The translations under genes and the position numbers were made by a program. Source: an uncultured Pseudomonadota bacterium (GTDB taxonomy: Bacteria; Babelota; Babeliae; Babelales; Vermiphilaceae). From it: a DNA stretch of 64,000 nucleotides. The stretch is from NCBI GenBank assembly GCA_964553945.1, contig CAZKLV010000002.1:271774-335773 (forward strand). The letters are read 5' to 3'. The notes below the pieces were generated by a model. It was not told the DNA's origin and searched no databases. It saw nothing but the letters and a program-made list of their open reading frames with translations. This document shows positions 9,518-30,493 of the stretch, piece by piece; the first letter of the stretch is position 1, and each line of letters begins with the position of its first letter.

Positions 9518-10918
9518 ATGACCCTTCAAGAATTATTGAGTAAATTCAGCTGGTCCCATGGATGGAACGCATTTTCATATGTCGTCTATAAAATACTTTC
9601 GACCAGCCTAACCTTCATACTCTATTACCGACTTTCGAGCCAAGATTTTTCTACATGGGCAAACATTCATTGCACCGCATTTTTAATGATTTTATGGGTC
9701 GATTGCGGATTTCGAAAATCGATTCCGCGCTATGCGCCCGAATATGCGCACAATAAAATTGCACTTCACCGCTTCATCAATAACATAGTACTTTTCCAAA
9801 TGGTAGTACTACTTGCAAGCGTACCACTCTTTCTTTTGGTTACTCGAAATCTACTTAACGCCGATTCATCATTCATCTATTTGGGATGCGCGCTCTATAT
9901 TGCCGAAGGAATATTAGCCATATTACAACTTATTTTTCATGCTTATTTCTGGAACAAGCAGTACAACCTTTGGGCTACATCAGTACTCGTTTTTCAGATG
10001 ATTATCAATCTGATTTTGCTTATGAAAATCGAGGAGAGCCGTTTTCTAGCGATGAGTATTTTGGCAACACGCATCATTGCAGCCGGTGTTATTATGTGCG
10101 CAAGTTTTATCTTGATCAAACGCTTAAAAAAAGATGAATTTGATCCGATTGTGCAGCATTATGATTCATCTTTCATAAATCGCAAATTCATCAAACATTC
10201 AGCCCTGATGTGGGCAAGCAATGTTATCAAAAGCTTATCCGAGCGTAATTTTTTGGTACCCTTTTTTACCTATACCTTGGGGCCAATTCCCGCCAATCTT
10301 TTTAAAATTGCCAATGATGGCGCACTATTTTTTTATCGCATTGTGATCAAAACAATTGGCACGACCGATACTGCATTATTGGCTCATGTAGAAGCCTCAC
10401 CGGAGAAGCGACCCCATATGGATGTTGCATTCAAAAAGTTGATTTTCAAAATGGCCGCACTTAGTATCCCGATGGTTGTGGTGGTTGCTACCCTCTATGC
10501 CTCAAAAGCAATCAGCTTGACCAACCAATTCATGTCCACTGCATTAACACTCATGGCAATTGCCTATCTGATCGAATCATTATTCTTACCCTACGAACGA
10601 ATACTCGAAGTCAAGCAGGAATACTGGTATATCTTTTATTCATATATTCCCTATGTGGCCATTGTGGCACTTTTCATTTCGAGCTCGATCATTCAGCGCC
10701 TTGGACTCTTCGAGAGCATTCTGGTTATTCATGCCATTCGCTTGATGAGCCTTTTTGCGATGGTAGCATTCGCAAGTAAATTATACGCCACATATTTTCC
10801 ATTCAGATTTATTTTATTAGTCTTAATTTATTCAAGTGTAGCTGGGTTGCTCCTTGTTCCTGTTGTTGCATATCTTGTTAACGGGTATGGAGCTAGCTTC
10901 CTGAATCTATTTTGTTAG
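9518..10918 (+). CDS. polytopic membrane protein, paralogue of 7564-8922 (MOP/Wzx-like suspected)
   Basis: 466 aa, many TM segments, NFLVPFFTYTLGPIPANLFKIAND aligns with DFLVPFFAYKFGLAAAGILKLASK of the neighbouring gene. Confidence 0.45.
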   Translation: MTLQELLSKFSWSHGWNAFSYVVYKILSTSLTFILYYRLSSQDFSTWANIHCTAFLMILWVDCGFRKSIPRYAPEYAHNKIALHRFINNIVLFQMVVLLASVPLFLLVTRNLLNADSSFIYLGCALYIAEGILAILQLIFHAYFWNKQYNLWATSVLVFQMIINLILLMKIEESRFLAMSILATRIIAAGVIMCASFILIKRLKKDEFDPIVQHYDSSFINRKFIKHSALMWASNVIKSLSERNFLVPFFTYTLGPIPANLFKIANDGALFFYRIVIKTIGTTDTALLAHVEASPEKRPHMDVAFKKLIFKMAALSIPMVVVVATLYASKAISLTNQFMSTALTLMAIAYLIESLFLPYERILEVKQEYWYIFYSYIPYVAIVALFISSSIIQRLGLFESILVIHAIRLMSLFAMVAFASKLYATYFPFRFILLVLIYSSVAGLLLVPVVAYLVNGYGASFLNLFC

Positions 10919-13618: not shown

Positions 13619-13854
13619 AGATAGGACCCCCATTTATGATTATTACATATAGTATCAGCATAGATCAATAAGCCCTACCTGTAAAAAGCCCTTTTTCACC
13701 TTGAATACTATCAACCCTGGGCCGAACCTGGCACCTCAGATATAATTGACAAATATAAAATATAGTATAAATTTATAATATCTGCCTCTTGAATGATTTT
13801 AAGGGGAGAATAGTATTAATAATGGAGCCTAAAACAGATTCAAATGGAGGTCCA

Positions 13855-15144
13855 ATGAAAAAAGTCTCAATTAAATTACTTTTGACCACCCTTCTATTTA
13901 CAGCCTCTCTGGGCGCAATGCAGCATCCAGAAGGCAAAACATCATTACATTTGCATGCCATAGCAAAACGACCAGACTACATTCTGAATATATTAGAAAA
14001 TTATAAAACACCACATATTGATGCACGTGACATCTACGGCAATACCCCTCTGCATGAAGCATGTTATTTTGGTTGTTTTGAATCTGTTTGCATCTTGCTC
14101 GATTTTGGCGCTAATATCAATGCAGTCAACAAAAATGGCCTCACGCCGGTTGATAAAGCATTCAACGGCAAACAAGAGGCAATTTTAGAATTATTACTCG
14201 AATATGGTGGTGTATCCGGGCAACAGATTGCTCCAGGGCGCGTAAAAAATCCGGTGCAACCAAATCCGGTTCAAAAACCAAAGCATCCATTAAACCCGAT
14301 TCAACCGGCTCAAAAAAAACAACCGGTGCCTCAACCAGCTAAAAAAATACAACCAAATCAAAAGCCTGCATACCAACCAATGCCGGCTGCTCCGAAACAT
14401 GCTCAACCAACTGCGCCCAAACATCAACCATACGCTCCGTCAAAAGCTGCAATCGCTCCATGTATATATGACCAGCGCGACTTACTGCACCTTCCAGGAC
14501 TAACAGGCGGCGCATTAAAGCTTCCAGGGGTATACCACGTCTATAGCGAAGCGCCAGTAGCAACCGACAAAGGATGGGCATGCGCATTCCACTCGCTTGA
14601 TAATATGCGCCAGCTTGAATATGAAATTTGCGGACGTCAAATTTCAGATCAAACATTCATCAATGCTTGTACAAAGAATTGCACTACTATCAAAAGCGGC
14701 TCAAACTGCATACAACAATACAAAATTGCTCAACAAATGGGCTTGCCTTACATGATAAATTTAGAAATCAATGATCAAGGGCGAGGCACCGAAATCGTAT
14801 TTAAAAGCGATACGTATTATGAATGGCGCGATGGCGAAAGCGAAGAATACGCCTATCAGCGCGCTGAACGAAATCGCCAAGACCAAGAATGGAACCGACT
14901 AGTTCAATTGTTCAAAACCTCTCGCGAACCAATTTGCATTCACTTCTGCGCAGGAATCATGTCATACCTCATTGATAATCCTGGCAGAGGCGAAGGTCAC
15001 GGGATCGATATCTCCGTAATCAAAGATAAAAATGGCGCCGTAGCACTCTACATATTTGATAACATCAATGACGCTGAAGCACGAACATCTCAAGATGCTA
15101 TTCGTCGGCACGTTGAGTTTATATATCGTAAATTCATAGCGTAA
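13855..15144 (+). CDS. leader + ankyrin repeats + Pro/Gln-rich linker + Josephin-like cysteine-protease domain
   Basis: GGAGG precedes the ATG at 13855. ANK repeats (GNTPLHEACYFGCFESVCILLDFGANINAVNKNGLTPV), a PxQ-rich linker, then GWACAFHSLDN ... GHGIDISVIKDKNGAVALYIFDNIND. Confidence 0.6.
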   Translation: MKKVSIKLLLTTLLFTASLGAMQHPEGKTSLHLHAIAKRPDYILNILENYKTPHIDARDIYGNTPLHEACYFGCFESVCILLDFGANINAVNKNGLTPVDKAFNGKQEAILELLLEYGGVSGQQIAPGRVKNPVQPNPVQKPKHPLNPIQPAQKKQPVPQPAKKIQPNQKPAYQPMPAAPKHAQPTAPKHQPYAPSKAAIAPCIYDQRDLLHLPGLTGGALKLPGVYHVYSEAPVATDKGWACAFHSLDNMRQLEYEICGRQISDQTFINACTKNCTTIKSGSNCIQQYKIAQQMGLPYMINLEINDQGRGTEIVFKSDTYYEWRDGESEEYAYQRAERNRQDQEWNRLVQLFKTSREPICIHFCAGIMSYLIDNPGRGEGHGIDISVIKDKNGAVALYIFDNINDAEARTSQDAIRRHVEFIYRKFIA

Positions 15145-15164: not shown

Positions 15165-15353
15165 ATGGACCCTCTGCAGAAATTAAAACATATTGCATCA
15201 CCATCACTTGCTCAATGTTATCAAGAGTATAAAAACAATCCTCCTTGCATGAAAGTTGATCGCCAAAATCATGCTGAGTGTTGTGGATGCAAAGAGCCAT
15301 GCTGCACCATACAAATACCAGCCATACCAAAAGACCAAAAGGAGCGAGAATGA
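15165..15353 (+). CDS. possible small Cys-rich protein (62 aa), ATGA-coupled to the WD40 gene
   Basis: Open frame MDPLQKLKH...ECCGCKEPCCTIQ with 7 Cys. Its TGA overlaps the ATG at 15350. No homology recognised, so it may be non-coding. Confidence 0.25.
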   Translation: MDPLQKLKHIASPSLAQCYQEYKNNPPCMKVDRQNHAECCGCKEPCCTIQIPAIPKDQKERE

Positions 15354-16825
15354 AGAGAATCATATTGCTTGCTGGATTGCTATTAAATCTTCAGGCGCTC
15401 ATCGCCATGGAGAGACCACCCAAGAGAATGTCAATAGAACAGATCAACACCATAAAACATACGTTTTTAAACGATCATGAAACCTTTAAAAACCTCTATC
15501 AAACTCGCGCGAGGCTACCCCTAGATTTAAGCAAATTACTTGCACAGATGATTATTACTCCCGCAATAAAACTCGCGTGCCAAAACGTAGCTGTTCCGTA
15601 TAAAGTACTTAAGCATAAAGACCGACATGTTGATTGCGCAAAGTTTAACCCGGCAGGAACGGCCATTGTTTCTGGTACACCAGACGGACTTGTACATATA
15701 TGGGATGTTGCAAGCGGTAAAGAAATTCAGACCATCAAAGCTCATGAACACGGCGCTTATGAACATGGTCAAGTCTTGGTAGCAAATTTCAGCCCAAACG
15801 GCCAGCTTATTATTACAGGATCATCACAAGGAACTGCTAAAGTATGGAATTTGCAAGACGGATCCTGCTTATTTACAGCAAATCATCCAAGCGATAAACT
15901 GGGAAGCAGCTTAGTTACAACAGCAGCTTTCAATTCGAGCGATACTGAATTGGTAACGGCATCAAGGAGTGGCTTCGCTTATATATTCACTAACTGGGCA
16001 AAACCAGGAACACCTGCTCTTCATATTAAAGCTGAAAAAGGAATCGCAAAAGCCATGATCCAGCCACACGGAAAGATCATCGCACTTGGTTTAATGAATG
16101 GCAATATTGTGCTCTGGGATTTTAATAAAGGCGAGTGCCTCAAACAACTCGAGGGGCACACCGGATGCATTGACTATGTTCACTTCAATCCAGATGGAAC
16201 CCTTCTTGCCTCAGCAGCAGAAGATAAAACGGTAAAAATATGGGATATCAATACCGGAAAATGTATTCATAACCTCACTCAACACCAAGCAAGAGTATTG
16301 TGCGCTGAGTTCGATTCAACGGGCGCCTTCTTAAGCTCCACAGATACCTGTGGAAACACTAAAATATGGGATGTTTCTACCGGAACATGCTTGCGCACAC
16401 TTGATCTCCATACATGCTTGATTCATATGACTGAACATAGAGATGACCAATGGTTTGCCCGCACAACCTCTAAGCAAGTCCCAGCCCGGGTTCGCTCAGC
16501 ATCATTTAGTCCAGACGGAAAACGCCTTGCAACCGCCTCACATGACTATACAGTGCGAATCTGGGATTTAAAAGACTTCATGGAATCGATCGAATTTCTA
16601 AAAAAGAGCCTTACTCTTGAACAAGCACTCCTTATTAATTTGATCTTTGAAACTGCACAATTAAACAAGCTATGTGAAAAACGCACCAAGAATCCAATCA
16701 CGCACCAACTGGATTTTTCAAAATTTGAACACCTTAAAACCTATTTCCAAGAACTACCCGAGCCAATTCAAAACGCGCTCAAACCATATATAAAACAAAA
16801 AGAAGAGGGCTGTGTAATTTTTTAA
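15350..16825 (+). CDS. leader-bearing WD40 beta-propeller protein with C-terminal CaaX box (CVIF)
   Basis: AAAGGAG precedes the ATG at 15350. Several WD repeats are present (GTPDGLVHIWDV, SSQGTAKVWNL, AAEDKTVKIWDI, DTCGNTKIWDV, ASHDYTVRIWDL). The protein ends in EEGCVIF followed by the stop. Confidence 0.85.
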   Translation: MKRIILLAGLLLNLQALIAMERPPKRMSIEQINTIKHTFLNDHETFKNLYQTRARLPLDLSKLLAQMIITPAIKLACQNVAVPYKVLKHKDRHVDCAKFNPAGTAIVSGTPDGLVHIWDVASGKEIQTIKAHEHGAYEHGQVLVANFSPNGQLIITGSSQGTAKVWNLQDGSCLFTANHPSDKLGSSLVTTAAFNSSDTELVTASRSGFAYIFTNWAKPGTPALHIKAEKGIAKAMIQPHGKIIALGLMNGNIVLWDFNKGECLKQLEGHTGCIDYVHFNPDGTLLASAAEDKTVKIWDINTGKCIHNLTQHQARVLCAEFDSTGAFLSSTDTCGNTKIWDVSTGTCLRTLDLHTCLIHMTEHRDDQWFARTTSKQVPARVRSASFSPDGKRLATASHDYTVRIWDLKDFMESIEFLKKSLTLEQALLINLIFETAQLNKLCEKRTKNPITHQLDFSKFEHLKTYFQELPEPIQNALKPYIKQKEEGCVIF

Positions 16826-16932: not shown

Positions 16933-18192
16933 CTAACTATTAATATACCCATCAAGCATCTGCGCCCATACGCTATCTTGGCCCCATTGAGTTGATGCAT
17001 AATCTGAATCAAGATACGCATTGCGCTCAAAATAAAAACTAATTCCAGAAGCACGTGGAAAATCTGATCCTTTTACTTGCGCAAGAACCGTTGATTTGAG
17101 TGCTTTGACAGCTGCCGCAATCGCATTATTGAGTTGCTTCAGTAATGCTTTGTCACTCACTTTTGCTTTACCAAGATTTGCTTTGAGATTATTCAAAAAA
17201 TCACCAATATCGATAAAACTATTCTCTGTGAAGAAGGTACAACGATTTGGATCGGCGCTTGCTTGAATTGCGAGTTTAATAACATCCGCATCTTTTGAGC
17301 TCAAAAATGATAGAATAACAGTTGCAACATGATCAAGCGCTGCTTTAAAGCCGGCAATTTGAGATAAATCGATTGCAGAAAGCGTGTAATCGGTTGTAAT
17401 GCTGTTATATAATGCGCCGTAATCTTTCACCATATCTTGCGCCATCTTGACAGCTTTAAGATTCGGCTTTGATGCCAAATTCAATGCAGTATCATACGGA
17501 TACCCTTGGCCTGGAATTGTTTCTTCAGATGCAACCAAGTATTTTGCATAAGAGCTGGCCGCATAAGCAACTTCAACATTTGCCATTAAACATGCATCGA
17601 ATGCGACAATATCAACTTTTTTACCGCCGCGTAATTGCACCGCTTGCTCAAGAACCGCGATCAAATCTTGATCGGTAAAATACGATCCGGTTGTATCATC
17701 ATAGCAAAATGCGCGATCCGCCGGAGTGCCCCACGGCTTGCCAAAGAATGTACTCACGAGCCCATTACGATTTAATGGTCCAGAGCCATGGTTCCAGAAA
17801 ACTATCACAAAATTATCTGACGGAAACTTTGACGTTGCCCATGTAACCGCATCGATTGCTGTTTGCGCAGCACCGCTATCCTTATCCATATCAGGGCCAT
17901 CTTGTAGAGCCTGGCCCTTTTGAACAACCAATGCACGAGTCCACTTAGAAGAATTATCTTTTGAGCTGACGTAGGCAAGAATATTCACATTTTGATTCGA
18001 TCCAATCTTTTGCATCTCTTCTAAATCCAAATGAATGAAATCGGCCAAACTATTATCGCCCGCAATATAGACAAGCACCGTTGCTTGTTTTTTGGCAAGC
18101 GGCGATGCTACATCTTTGCGTTGCCATGATAACGCAAATGCGTTCATTGAAATGAGCAAACCAATGCTCAATGATATTTGTTTTTTGTACAT
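16933..18192 (-). CDS. secreted clostripain-family (C11) cysteine peptidase
   Basis: His motif FVIVFWNHGSGP and Cys motif DIVAFDACLMANVE form the C11 catalytic dyad context. N-terminal leader MYKKQISLSIGLLISMNAFA. GGGAG precedes the ATG at 18192. Confidence 0.8.
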   Translation of the reverse strand: MYKKQISLSIGLLISMNAFALSWQRKDVASPLAKKQATVLVYIAGDNSLADFIHLDLEEMQKIGSNQNVNILAYVSSKDNSSKWTRALVVQKGQALQDGPDMDKDSGAAQTAIDAVTWATSKFPSDNFVIVFWNHGSGPLNRNGLVSTFFGKPWGTPADRAFCYDDTTGSYFTDQDLIAVLEQAVQLRGGKKVDIVAFDACLMANVEVAYAASSYAKYLVASEETIPGQGYPYDTALNLASKPNLKAVKMAQDMVKDYGALYNSITTDYTLSAIDLSQIAGFKAALDHVATVILSFLSSKDADVIKLAIQASADPNRCTFFTENSFIDIGDFLNNLKANLGKAKVSDKALLKQLNNAIAAAVKALKSTVLAQVKGSDFPRASGISFYFERNAYLDSDYASTQWGQDSVWAQMLDGYINS

Positions 18193-18276
18193 ATGTGGCT
18201 CCCAGAAAAGAAATGAAACATTTTGTACAGATAATGTGATAAATTTCATAAAGTGACCGCAATAGTTTTGATAGGA

Positions 18277-19347
18277 TCAACAAAAAATATCTCGAAATAC
18301 AAAAGTTAGCCCAGTTGCTTTTGAAAGTTGCGCCCCAATTGCATATTGAACAATGCATGCATTCAATGCTCTCTTTGCAGAAGCTATATTTTTTCTCAAT
18401 TGCCCGTATATCGATTTACCTGCGATTTCTGCTCGTGCAATCTGCGATTGCAGATTGGCTAAAAAATGTCCAAGGTCCAACCGACTTTGTTCCCCGAAGA
18501 AAGTACAATTGCTACAGCAAGAACTTTCGATTAACATTTGTTGCAACATACTCTTGGCACCCTTTAATATTTCATGAACCGAAAGAACAGTCTTATCCAT
18601 TAGCTCTGATAATCTTTGTACCTTGGAAAGATCTATTGCGCAGAGCGAATAGTCACTTCGGATTTGTTCATATCTCTCTTCATATGCATTGCACATATCA
18701 AATGCCATTCTGCCAGCACAGAAGAAAACATCTTTTACCGCATATTTTAATGCCGCAAGATAAGGAAACCAATCGCTCGATTTATACCCCTCAGATGCAA
18801 CCATGAACTTTGCGCAAGGAGCCAACATACGCGCTATCTCCAGACTTGCCATCATATCTGCATCAAATGCAACTAGATCTATCATCGTGCCTCGCACAGC
18901 AAAAAGATACGAGACGATTTGCTGGATTTGCTCGGCGGCAAGGGGCGATCCTCGTGATGATGCACAAAAAACCAAAACAAACTTCTCCGAAGGAAACTTT
19001 TCATGCGCCCAGCGGCAAGCATTGATTCCATTGTTCACCCAAGACTCTTCAACATCAATATTTTCTCGATCCTCAAAGAGGGAAGCCTTATCGCCAATTG
19101 GAGCCTGAATCACTTTTCCCGCACCATTCATTAATGCAGAATAAACTAAGACGTTAACACTTTCAGTTGCAGCAACTTTTTGCAATTCTTTACAAATCAT
19201 TTGGACATAATCAAGCGGAGTGTCTTGCGAAATATAAATCAAAATGGTGACTTGTTTTATCGGACAAGCAGTATTGGTATCTACACACCCAGAAGCGGCA
19301 AAGAAAACAATTTGAAAAAGACCAAAAACAACCACCTTAATATTCAT
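18277..19347 (-). CDS. C11-like pseudo-peptidase (both catalytic residues substituted)
   Basis: Collinear with 16933-18192, but the His motif reads FVLVFCASSRGSP and the Cys motif reads DLVAFDADMMASLE. The leader has a possible lipobox, FFAASGC. Confidence 0.7.
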   Translation of the reverse strand: MNIKVVVFGLFQIVFFAASGCVDTNTACPIKQVTILIYISQDTPLDYVQMICKELQKVAATESVNVLVYSALMNGAGKVIQAPIGDKASLFEDRENIDVEESWVNNGINACRWAHEKFPSEKFVLVFCASSRGSPLAAEQIQQIVSYLFAVRGTMIDLVAFDADMMASLEIARMLAPCAKFMVASEGYKSSDWFPYLAALKYAVKDVFFCAGRMAFDMCNAYEERYEQIRSDYSLCAIDLSKVQRLSELMDKTVLSVHEILKGAKSMLQQMLIESSCCSNCTFFGEQSRLDLGHFLANLQSQIARAEIAGKSIYGQLRKNIASAKRALNACIVQYAIGAQLSKATGLTFVFRDIFC

Positions 19348-22372: not shown

Positions 22373-23416
<1,044 letters not shown>

Positions 23417-23503
23417 ACTCGTCCTTTGAAAAGATATAGTATTTTTTCTCTGCGAGTATCGCATAAGATTTACTCGAATCTCAATTGATCGAAAATAATT
23501 GAA

Positions 23504-28814: not shown

Positions 28815-28903
28815 TAATTGCCATCATCCACCTGCATCCAATTGCATTCCTTTCCCCAAATGCCCATACTAAATGCATAAGCATGTTTTACCGTGGAGTT
28901 TTG

Positions 28904-30493
28904 ATGAATTCAATCAGATTACGATTAACAATTATCGCCCTTTTTGCCCTTCCCACCTCGACCCTGGGAATGAAATATTTTGCCTCTCATCTCTGGAAAT
29001 CACTGACCAACGATTCGAAGGCTGCTCAGGAGGAGCCCTTTGAGTGGCCGGCCGATATCGGTGATGGTACAGCAATTGGTACAAAAATCGCCAAAGCCCT
29101 TGCGAACAAAAGTTATTCGGACCAATTTCTTTTTGGAGCATCAACCTCCGAGCATCAATGCAGCAAACAATGCACCCCTGATATTTGCTCGTGGGAACGG
29201 TTTGCAGAACAAAATAATCTCAAGCATCCATCAGATATACACTATCCCATTGATCTCTGGAACAATTATCGTTCCTATATAACAACCGCCAAAGAAGTAC
29301 TTGGGCTCAACTCACTCCGATTCTCAATCGAATGGGCACTCGTGCAACCCAATGGACCCGATTCATTTGATCAGCGGACCCTTGAACATTATGCCGATAT
29401 ATTTTGCTACTGCATTCAAAAAGGCATAACACCCATCATTTGTTTTCATCATTACACCGATCCATGCTGGTTCATAGACATGGGCGGATTTGAACGCGAA
29501 GAAAACATCGCATACTTTGTGCGCTACTGCGCAACCATCTACCAAACCCTGATGAATCAATTGCGAAGAAATACACGCGCTCGAATCCAATATACATCTG
29601 TGCACCACCCTCTTTTTGCCACCTTCAATTCACCAGAAGGGTATGCATTTAAAGCCTATTTGCAGATGAAAGCACCACCAGCTGATCCAACAAAAAAAGG
29701 GTTGCGACATGTTGCAAATGTACTCAAAAATATGATGGAGGCTCATGTAGCGGTCTATTATGAACTCAAAGAAGTATATGCTACATTCGATCCAATTCTT
29801 AAACAATCGGTGAATGCGCCACAAATTGGATTTTTAAAAAATATCATTCAGCTCGATCCATCGCGCACAACATTTGGCGAGCGCATCATGGCAGGGTTTA
29901 CTCGCATGGCATGCGCGATTGGTAACATGCTCCAAAACGAATGTATTTATCGATTTTTTACACGCGGTGAATTTCGCGTCTATGTACCGGCAAAAGTTGC
30001 GCTTAAACATGTGAATAAATCGGCAATCGGCGCACTCGATTTTATCGGTATCAATTATTACTCCAATCGCTACATGTATTTTGGCACATCTTTAACCGAA
30101 TCAGATGAAACTTATCGTACCGATAACAGCAATTATCGAGTTCATCCACAAGGATTGTATCGTGCCATTGTGGAAGTAAATGATAAGCTCGCCGCTCCGC
30201 TGGGTATACCGATGTATGTGACAGAAAACGGTATTGCAACACATAATGATCAAAAACGAAGCGACTTTTATCGGCATTATCTTTACGCCCTTTCTCGCGC
30301 ACTAGAAGATGGTTATGATGTGCGCGGCTATTTAACCTGGACCTTGGCGGATAATTATGAATGGCCAAATTTAGAAGATAATACTCCTCGAGTATATGGC
30401 TTGTGTTCAGTCAGTGCAACGCGACCATCAGAGTTGGTGCTGAAGGATGGAGGCAAGGCGTATGTGGAGATTGTCAGACAAGTGTTGGGATAA
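28904..30493 (+). CDS. leader-bearing glycoside hydrolase family 1 protein with NSP in place of the NEP acid/base motif
   Basis: GH1 blocks are present: FLFGASTSEHQ, LRFSIEWALVQP, ICFHHYTDP, the nucleophile motif YVTENGIA, and WTLADNYEWP. The acid/base position reads TFNSPEG. GGAG precedes the ATG at 28904. Confidence 0.85.
   Translation: MNSIRLRLTIIALFALPTSTLGMKYFASHLWKSLTNDSKAAQEEPFEWPADIGDGTAIGTKIAKALANKSYSDQFLFGASTSEHQCSKQCTPDICSWERFAEQNNLKHPSDIHYPIDLWNNYRSYITTAKEVLGLNSLRFSIEWALVQPNGPDSFDQRTLEHYADIFCYCIQKGITPIICFHHYTDPCWFIDMGGFEREENIAYFVRYCATIYQTLMNQLRRNTRARIQYTSVHHPLFATFNSPEGYAFKAYLQMKAPPADPTKKGLRHVANVLKNMMEAHVAVYYELKEVYATFDPILKQSVNAPQIGFLKNIIQLDPSRTTFGERIMAGFTRMACAIGNMLQNECIYRFFTRGEFRVYVPAKVALKHVNKSAIGALDFIGINYYSNRYMYFGTSLTESDETYRTDNSNYRVHPQGLYRAIVEVNDKLAAPLGIPMYVTENGIATHNDQKRSDFYRHYLYALSRALEDGYDVRGYLTWTLADNYEWPNLEDNTPRVYGLCSVSATRPSELVLKDGGKAYVEIVRQVLG

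Follow-up and report, generated by a model that had tools for sequence, protein, structure and literature searches.

Two paralogous leader-bearing propeller proteins of a Dependentiae-like bacterium end in a conserved CaaX box and are candidate host-prenylated effectors

We analysed a 64,000-nucleotide segment of a bacterial chromosome with about 40 % G+C (contig CAZKLV010000002.1, positions 271,774 to 335,773; called the window below) and describe two of its genes, A and B. The layout common to their products is a signal-peptide-like leader, a helical N-block, a β-propeller, a helical C-block and a predicted disordered tail that ends in a CaaX box (Cys, two aliphatic residues and X), the prenylation signal of eukaryotes. 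On balance, we think it probable that A and B are exported propeller effectors that become prenylated by the host and anchored to its membranes. Both belong, as diverged paralogues, to a very small family restricted to Dependentiae-like intracellular bacteria. A sequence-only reading of the window had singled out the open reading frames (ORFs) 15350-16825 and 61030-62442 as collinear, exported, F-box-like WD40 paralogues with CaaX ends. Both ORFs lie where it placed them and contain all the peptides that it quoted. As shown below, its account of the paralogy, the leaders, the propellers and the CaaX boxes holds, and its F-box does not.

Gene A is an intact reading frame from an ATG at 15350 to a TAA at 16823-16825, and the identical protein is present in the NCBI genome record. 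At the DNA level its 3′ end reads GAG GGC TGT GTA ATT TTT TAA, that is, GCVIF-stop. The basic start, hydrophobic core and small residue (Ala) at −1 of its leader are the parts of a Sec signal peptide, as judged by a hydropathy and motif scan. Its features are as follows.

15339-15344 (+): Shine-Dalgarno sequence AAGGAG, 5 nt 5′ of the ATG, taken from the sequence itself.
15350-16825 (+): gene A, 491 amino acids, with leader, N-block, seven-bladed WD40 propeller, C-block and CaaX box (CVIF).
15350-15406 (+): leader MKRIILLAGLLLNLQALIA, followed by Met20-Glu (hydropathy and motif scan).
15431-15577 (+): N-block, residues 28-76, three predicted helices, containing IKHTFLND...LPLDLSKLLAQMII; family-specific, no F-box (alignment, profile, AlphaFold2, hhalign).
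15587-16567 (+): WD40 β-propeller, residues 80-406, seven blades (Pfam, AlphaFold2, Foldseek).
16571-16789 (+): C-block, residues 408-480, four predicted helices, LTLEQALLINLIFE...DFSKFEHLKTYFQELPEPIQ (alignment, profile, AlphaFold2).
16811-16825 (+): CaaX box Cys488-Val-Ile-Phe and TAA, read at the DNA level; tail residues 483-491 are predicted to be disordered.

Gene B runs from an ATG at 61030 to a TAA at 62440-62442, and its last codons are TCT GAA TGT GTA ATA TTG TAA (ECVIL-stop). The NCBI record (P0121) places the start 16 codons further upstream. We prefer the shorter start because homologues in other assemblies begin at the equivalent Met-Lys-Lys or Met-Lys-Ser position. The features of gene B are listed below.

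61021-61024 (+): Shine-Dalgarno-like GGAG, 5 nt 5′ of the ATG.
61030-62442 (+): gene B, 470 amino acids from MKKTIFF, ORF intact.
61030-61101 (+): leader MKKTIFFKALVTGLVLSITSRSFT, followed by Met25-Glu-Glu-Glu (hydropathy and motif scan, homologue alignment).
61261-61410 (+): N-block, residues 78-127, ENIVHMFLHDPEQYEATYGALPHELQLALGEKVLQAVP (alignment, AlphaFold2).
61423-62187 (+): likely degenerate β-propeller, residues ~132-386 (hhalign, PDB profile search, AlphaFold2 and Foldseek).
62206-62367 (+): C-block, residues 393-446, ITLDQAITLCVLFQMKRQNKLGNIDQVPHLRSYCENLP (alignment, AlphaFold2).
62428-62442 (+): CaaX box Cys467-Val-Ile-Leu and TAA; tail residues 447-470 are predicted to be disordered.

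A direct BLASTP comparison of A and B detects their relationship only weakly (C-block E 1e-4, N-block E 0.059). A profile built from five B-type proteins, with A left out, matched A at E 2e-17 (57.7 bits) among the 394 window ORFs. This match falls into three collinear segments, namely the N-block with the first blades (6e-6), further blades (3e-4) and the C-block with the CaaX box (2.5e-6). We thus find that A and B are distant paralogues with one layout. A was the sole non-self match of the profile, with the next ORF at E 0.16, and hidden Markov models (HMMs) of the N- and C-blocks found no further copies in the window ORFs.

We looked for relatives of the two proteins in large sequence collections. 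A word-indexed search with B returned B itself and one JGI protein (P0122, 35 % identity). An exhaustive HMMER profile search among 1.84 billion representatives, which stand for about 15 billion proteins, returned only B, P0122, P0128, P0129 and P0130; the family was absent from free-living bacteria in this set. Scanning genome contigs with a B and P0122 alignment gave no relative, in a collection that does not contain the source genome, scanning metagenome contigs with an A and P0130 alignment gave nothing, and a scan of viral contigs was equally empty. Looking up the exact sequences of A, P0121 and P0128 among contigs gave no match either. Each of the six members, A included, is a singleton cluster on one contig, so the family must be very rare. 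Its combination of N-block, propeller and C-block has no Pfam or NCBIfam model, and NCBIfam gave nothing informative. The whole-protein search with A was dominated by generic bacterial 'WD40 repeat proteins' (24-34 % identity) and gave no A-type orthologue. None of the 120 best WD40 matches to A carries an N- or C-block, and only one (P0009) has Cys at −4, in the ending CVEE, which is no aliphatic CaaX.

The six members of the family end as follows.

A: GCVIF
B: ECVIL
P0122: GCTIV
P0128: SCLIL
P0129: GCIIL
P0130: ICAIL

When the C-blocks and tails of the six are aligned, only three columns are invariant: a Pro in the C-block, Cys(−4) and Ile(−2). The stretch from the C-block to the Cys is unconserved and has insertions of up to ~20 residues. 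As the sequence and length of the tail drift while the Cys stays at a fixed distance from the stop codon, we infer selection on the C-terminal box. X is Leu, Phe or Val and the second aliphatic residue is always Ile, which is the type of geranylgeranyltransferase I (GGTase-I). The box that the sequence-only reading had pointed out is kept in 6/6 members (CVIF, CVIL, CTIV, CLIL, CIIL and CAIL). Because the box is invariant in all six known members, it is very likely functional. Prenyltransferase substrates need a disordered tail in front of the CaaX box. The tails of A (residues 483-491) and B (447-470) are hydrophilic with Lys and Arg, and their predicted local distance difference test (pLDDT) scores in AlphaFold2 are below 50. 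In the part of a GGTase-I data set that we draw on here, CVIL, CIIL and CTIL were completely geranylgeranylated by the human enzyme in a yeast reporter (PMC11152559).

Counting the C termini of 60 window genes, we find two strict CaaX boxes (C[AVILM][AVILM]X) where 0.13 were expected (P 0.008), and five with Cys at −4 where 1.0 was expected (P 0.004). We regard the conservation in all six members as the stronger evidence. CaaX-like endings are not confined to the A/B family, since they also occur on unrelated proteins. One of these lies in the window:

58553-59695 (+): ankyrin-repeat protein, unrelated to A and B, with the same leader type and the ending NCSVQ-stop, a farnesyl-type CaaX-like box.

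Alongside A and B, this protein may be a third candidate for prenylation. The gene adjoining that of P0130 (L082, 1309-2085, +) encodes a 258-amino-acid ankyrin-like protein with a leader ...ALA-MKQ and the ending DDSCTIL-stop, and a partial ORF upstream on the P0129 contig (L083, 1-207, +) ends in VVCPMQ-stop. A collagen-triple-helix-repeat protein of the window (22373-23464, −; Pfam Collagen E 1.3e-15; hydrophobic N terminus) ends in SCVPT-stop; its Cys is at −4, but with Pro at the second aliphatic position the ending is a poor CaaX box. The Pfam scan of 32 window proteins showed neither a prenyltransferase nor a CPBP/Rce1-like protease domain.

The propellers differ in how well they are preserved. 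In protein A, the Pfam WD40 model scores five repeats and reaches E 8.9e-46. Its AlphaFold2 model, made from a 40-sequence alignment, has a pLDDT of 82 and a predicted template modelling score of 0.79, with a seven-bladed propeller at ~80-406 mostly above pLDDT 90. Three helices precede the propeller (29-76, pLDDT 47-68) and four follow it (408-480, pLDDT 55-82). Foldseek superimposes this propeller on the bacterial WD40 domain of Thermomonospora curvata (PDB 5yzv) with a template modelling (TM) score of 0.94, a root-mean-square deviation of 1.7 Å and 28 % identity. Judged by the Pfam match and the model, A is a true WD40 protein with a closed seven-blade fold. Protein B has no Pfam match at all. 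In hhalign, the middle part of B can be aligned with the blades of the A propeller (probability 80 %, E 1.4e-5), the family profile finds WD40 chains in the PDB at E 0.0015-0.02, and one homologue has weak WD40-type Pfam matches (E 0.003-0.2). In the AlphaFold2 model of B (pLDDT 65) the propeller region is all-β. Foldseek matches it at E ~1e-6 to propellers, among them WDR5 and that of clathrin, although the TM scores on this model are low (0.15-0.2). The propeller of B is likely to be a degenerate WD40-type one. The sequence-only reading, which spoke of a WD40 or degenerate propeller, was right for A and is likely to be right for B.

We used RecA to place the source organism. Its closest relatives in one-genome-per-species collections, at 69-79 % identity, include metagenome-assembled genomes (MAGs) named 'Candidatus Babeliales bacterium', and all other RecA sequences are at 61 % or below. 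Because of this, we assign the window to a member of the Dependentiae (TM6). The Dependentiae are a widespread, almost uncultured phylum of obligate intracellular parasites of protists. The window carries recA and dnaK, and the scan of its ORFs showed ankyrin repeats in at least 16 of them; it also encodes glycosidases, two clostripain-like peptidases and the collagen-like protein. Both A and B stand among leader-bearing ankyrin and protease genes. A metagenome scan with the neighbouring membrane protein (9518-10918) gave one contig of a related bacterium (L084, JGI Ga0163144_10012719), with 71 % identity in that protein. It is syntenic with the first 10 kb of the window (1-10 kb: recA, a gene for a SurA-like/peptidyl-prolyl isomerase protein and neighbours) and stops before the A locus.

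Gene A is directly preceded by an ankyrin gene (13789-15144, +) whose product has a long Pro/Gln/Lys-rich linker and a ~200-amino-acid C-terminal domain without a Pfam match. Directly downstream on the opposite strand lie two tandem clostripain-family (Peptidase_C11) genes (16933-18249, −, and 18277-19347, −); their products have hydrophobic N termini and are possibly secreted proteases. Gene B sits near the end of a ~20-kb island (~42500-63000, + with one gene on −) that has at least 10 ankyrin-repeat genes and several leader-bearing ORFs without a Pfam match. Leaders are also found on the GH1 and GH3 glycosidases at 28883-30493 and 32152-33792.

The leaders of the window follow a common pattern. 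The products of at least 24 of the 60 window genes start with a hydrophobic leader that closes with [A/G/S/T/C]-Met, and the next residue is usually E, Q, N or K, for example LIA-ME, LGA-MQ, LFA-ME, SFA-MQ, LKA-MN and LLA-MK. Dipeptides of this class make up 0.7 % of positions overall. Leaders of this kind begin, among others, at the following positions.

10971, 12884 (−), 13789, 15350 (gene A), 43615, 50968 and 52323: small-residue-Met leaders.
54715, 55461, 57597, 58553, 59753, 61030 (gene B) and 62478: further small-residue-Met leaders.

The same pattern recurs in homologues on other Dependentiae contigs (AME, GME, AMV, AMK). These scans support the export-type leaders that the sequence-only reading had proposed for A and B. 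Signal peptidase I sites do not usually have an invariant Met at +1. Cleavage before this Met would give mature proteins whose first residue is Met, as in native cytosolic proteins of eukaryotes. A further possibility is that the conserved Met serves as an alternative internal start. In Chromulinavorax, signal peptides occur on 44 % of the coding sequences and on 78 % of the ankyrin proteins (PMC6561590), and the leader frequency of the window agrees with this share. Ankyrin proteins of Dependentiae that carry signal peptides are believed to enter the protist host by secretion. The only export route recognised in the phylum is Sec with a type II secretion system (T2SS), possibly together with outer-membrane vesicles.

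From these observations we propose the following sequence of events. A and B would be synthesised as precursors whose Sec-type signal peptide has the form typical of the lineage, with a hydrophobic core, a small residue and Met. After cleavage of the leader, the proteins would be exported by Sec and the T2SS, or in vesicles, and would reach the cytosol of the protist host. There, the flexible C-terminal tail could present the CaaX box with its Leu, Phe or Val at X. The Cys would receive an isoprenoid from host GGTase-I, or from farnesyltransferase (FTase) in some members, and the standard Rce1 and ICMT steps would remove the -aaX residues and methylate the new C terminus. Through this lipid, A and B would be held on a host membrane, on the side of the cytosol. 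Their WD40-type propeller, with the family-specific helical N- and C-blocks as caps, may serve as a protein-binding platform for a host target.

Several points weigh against this proposal. The prenylation of A and B is read from sequence alone, and the family is tiny, so the conservation in six sequences rests on few lineages. CTIV (with Val at X) and CVIF are less typical substrates. The enrichment of CaaX boxes in the window is modest (P ~0.01), and this statistic is weak on its own because A and B are paralogues and not independent. With a Sec leader, a protein gets no further than the periplasm, whereas the prenyltransferases are cytosolic enzymes of the host. Topology is the weakest link of the proposal, as the proteins would have to cross the outer membrane and any vacuolar membrane. 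Babela, at least, lives within a vacuole. The proven CaaX effectors all travel by type III or type IV secretion systems (T3SS or T4SS) and not by Sec/T2SS (PMC13081727, PMC13423502, PMC2916131). The portion of the GGTase-I data set used above does not include CVIF, and likewise lacks CAIL, CLIL and CTIV (PMC11152559).

In the principal rival explanation, A and B are periplasmic or outer-membrane-associated envelope propellers like BamB and YncE. Their C-aliphatic-aliphatic-L ending would then have nothing to do with host prenylation and might instead form a disulfide, bind a metal or direct sorting or processing in the bacterium. The periplasm is the default destination of a Sec-type leader, periplasmic propellers are common (E. 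coli YncE stands at rank 41 in the Foldseek search with B), and no dedicated machinery for translocation into the host is known in Dependentiae. Nevertheless, the motif equals the best GGTase-I substrates residue for residue, and we know of no bacterial signal that consists of a Cys at exactly −4, an aliphatic residue, Ile, then Leu, Phe or Val and the stop. Also against the envelope explanation are the same ending on unrelated leader-bearing ankyrin proteins and the absence of the family from free-living bacteria among the 1.84 billion representatives, and leader-bearing ankyrin and WD40 proteins of Dependentiae are generally considered host-directed. We judge an envelope function unlikely, and favour host prenylation.

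The N-block raises a different question. The sequence-only reading took it to be F-box-like and the whole protein for a mimic of the FBXW substrate receptors. A divergent F-box would recruit host Skp1/Cul1, and A and B would then be membrane-anchored Skp1-Cul1-F-box (SCF) substrate receptors, like AnkB or FBXL2/FBXO10. The conserved 'G-x-L-P-x-E-[LIV]-x-x-x-L' of the N-block does recall the start of F-box helix 1, and in FBXW7, β-TrCP and Cdc4, as in A and B, a WD40 propeller comes after a helical segment at the N terminus. Dependentiae genomes have been reported to contain F-box domains (PMC4776705). Prenylated F-box proteins exist in Legionella (PMC2916131) and in eukaryotes, where FBXL2 and FBXO10 carry a geranylgeranylated CaaX box as we propose for A and B (PMC9988375, PMC11042265).

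However, we found no F-box in any of the profile comparisons. The Pfam models F-box, F-box-like and F-box_5 (PF00646 / PF12937) gave no match at E <= 10 to the six members or to their isolated N-terminal pieces, whereas six genuine F-boxes used as a positive control (Skp2, β-TrCP, FBXW7, Cdc4, TIR1 and Legionella AnkB) all matched, with best E values of 6e-12 to 5e-22 per model. Thus, of the two kinds of Pfam model that the sequence-only reading had named, WD40 was found in A and not in B, and F-box in neither. Comparing the N-block profile with a profile of the six F-boxes in hhalign gave a probability of 0.6 % over seven aligned columns around 'LPxE', to which the resemblance is confined. 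The PDB profile search with the N-block returned no F-box protein. In an F-box, the LP precedes all three helices. The AlphaFold2 models show four short helices, the third of which begins with the LP motif, and just one, unconserved, helix lies between this one and the first blade. The stretch that follows the LP helix lacks the V-C/S-K/R-x-W helix, and in A the first blade is only ~25 residues away from the LP motif. FBXW7, β-TrCP and Cdc4 are absent from the Foldseek top 50 of both models, which contains WD40 proteins such as WDR5, G-beta, LIS1, ODA16 and PRP4; this structural comparison is only indicative, as the N-block has a pLDDT of 47-77 and the propeller dominates a whole-model search. 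The nearest matches to the WD40 repeats of A lie in bacterial WD40 proteins, so we see no sign of an FBXW origin in eukaryotes. The F-box reading of the N-block is therefore rejected on negative Pfam, hhalign and PDB profile results, and the FBXW mimicry falls with it. SCF recruitment by a divergent F-box is very improbable, and the tempting F-box/E3-ligase annotation is unsupported; the family is not an F-box family and not an FBXW mimic.

The C-block invites two further comparisons. It could be a fragment related to retinoblastoma protein (RB) pocket B, a cyclin fold, and the protein as a whole could, in addition or instead, be a fused G-beta/G-gamma mimic, with an N-helix, a propeller, a helical segment and a CaaX box. 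Such an effector would disturb the cell cycle or G-protein signalling of the host at membranes. The only PDB matches of the C-block profile below E 0.01 are RB pocket B (1gux_B 53-115, E 0.0011, 66 columns), a stretch that presumably holds part of the LxCxE-binding cleft. Pfam RB_B (PF01857) matches one member at E 0.009, hhalign against the RB B domain gives 44 %, and with RB as the query P0130 ranks first among 524 sequences (E 0.0013). Yet all of these scores are below the threshold of Pfam, and a decoy profile of reversed sequences reaches E 0.0014 against the PDB, which is the noise level. At present the RB similarity appears unproven and not distinguishable from chance. As for G proteins, G-beta is among the best Foldseek matches of A, with alignments longer than those of bare propellers, and the endings CAIL and CIIL recall G-gamma, as the layout recalls a fused G-beta-gamma. 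But any protein with a seven-blade WD40 propeller should give such matches to G-beta, and hhalign of the C-block against five G-gamma sequences gave 4 % over five columns, which are the CaaX box only. With nothing aligned beyond the box, we reject a G-gamma (GGL) similarity of the C-block. An RB fragment or a G-beta-gamma mimic is, in our view, even more improbable than an F-box.

The reading that we prefer, an exported propeller protein that the host prenylates, has established precedents. Legionella AnkB and the Pel/CMP proteins and Salmonella SifA and GtgE have a eukaryotic CaaX end, and host FTase or GGTase-I anchors such effectors to membranes; their prenylation by the host is established for AnkB, the Pels and GtgE (PMC2916131, PMC13081727, PMC13423502). 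These effectors come from intracellular pathogens of amoebae or macrophages, which resembles the intracellular setting of A and B. As in the Pels, the CaaX box is appended to unrelated interaction domains, WD40 in A and B and ankyrin repeats in neighbouring genes. The precedent of AnkB and the Pels, which the sequence-only reading had invoked, is thus apt. The position, composition and conservation of the box, the exposed linker predicted before it and the tetrapeptides known from proven substrates are those of host-prenylated CaaX effectors. A and B differ from the Legionella and Salmonella effectors in their phylum (Dependentiae and not Pseudomonadota), in their lack of sequence similarity to any Pel or to AnkB, and in an N-terminal Sec-type signal peptide in place of a Dot/Icm or T3SS signal. 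Unlike AnkB, they have a WD40 propeller and no F-box, and their prenylation is predicted from sequence.

Closer to home are the leader-bearing ankyrin, WD40 and F-box proteins of Babela massiliensis, Chromulinavorax destructans and TM6 MAGs, which have the lineage and leader type of A and B. They share with A and B the islands of repeat genes and a presumed role as secreted proteins in host interaction (PMC4378268, PMC6561590, PMC4776705). We saw no mention of a C-terminal prenylation motif in these three genome papers ('prenyl' occurs 0 times in PMC6561590), and a full-text literature search found nothing that links Dependentiae with CaaX.

In summary, the mechanism that we propose for A and B is by analogy an expected extension of the Legionella paradigm. 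It adds a new protein family, from a new phylum, to the host-prenylated kind of effector, apparently exported by a different route. Host-mediated prenylation of effectors would thereby extend beyond Legionella and Salmonella, to proteins without a T3SS or T4SS signal, and this raises the question of how cargo of Sec and the T2SS could enter the cytosol of the host. CaaX endings stand on several leader-bearing proteins that are unrelated to one another, namely the WD40-like family and the ankyrin proteins with CTIL and CSVQ. Based on this, we tentatively raise a broader idea, which we hold with less confidence than the proposal for A and B themselves, that Dependentiae use host prenylation generally to place Sec/type II-exported effectors without an injection system. 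If this is true, an unrecognised pathway would carry periplasmic or vacuolar proteins into the host cytosol, and the CaaX box would be a sequence marker for the cytosol-directed part of the signal-peptide secretome of Dependentiae. Up to 44 % of the genes of these bacteria encode signal-peptide proteins, and the conserved lipidation signal would be sequence-level evidence that at least some of their leader-bearing proteins reach the host cytosol and act on host membranes.

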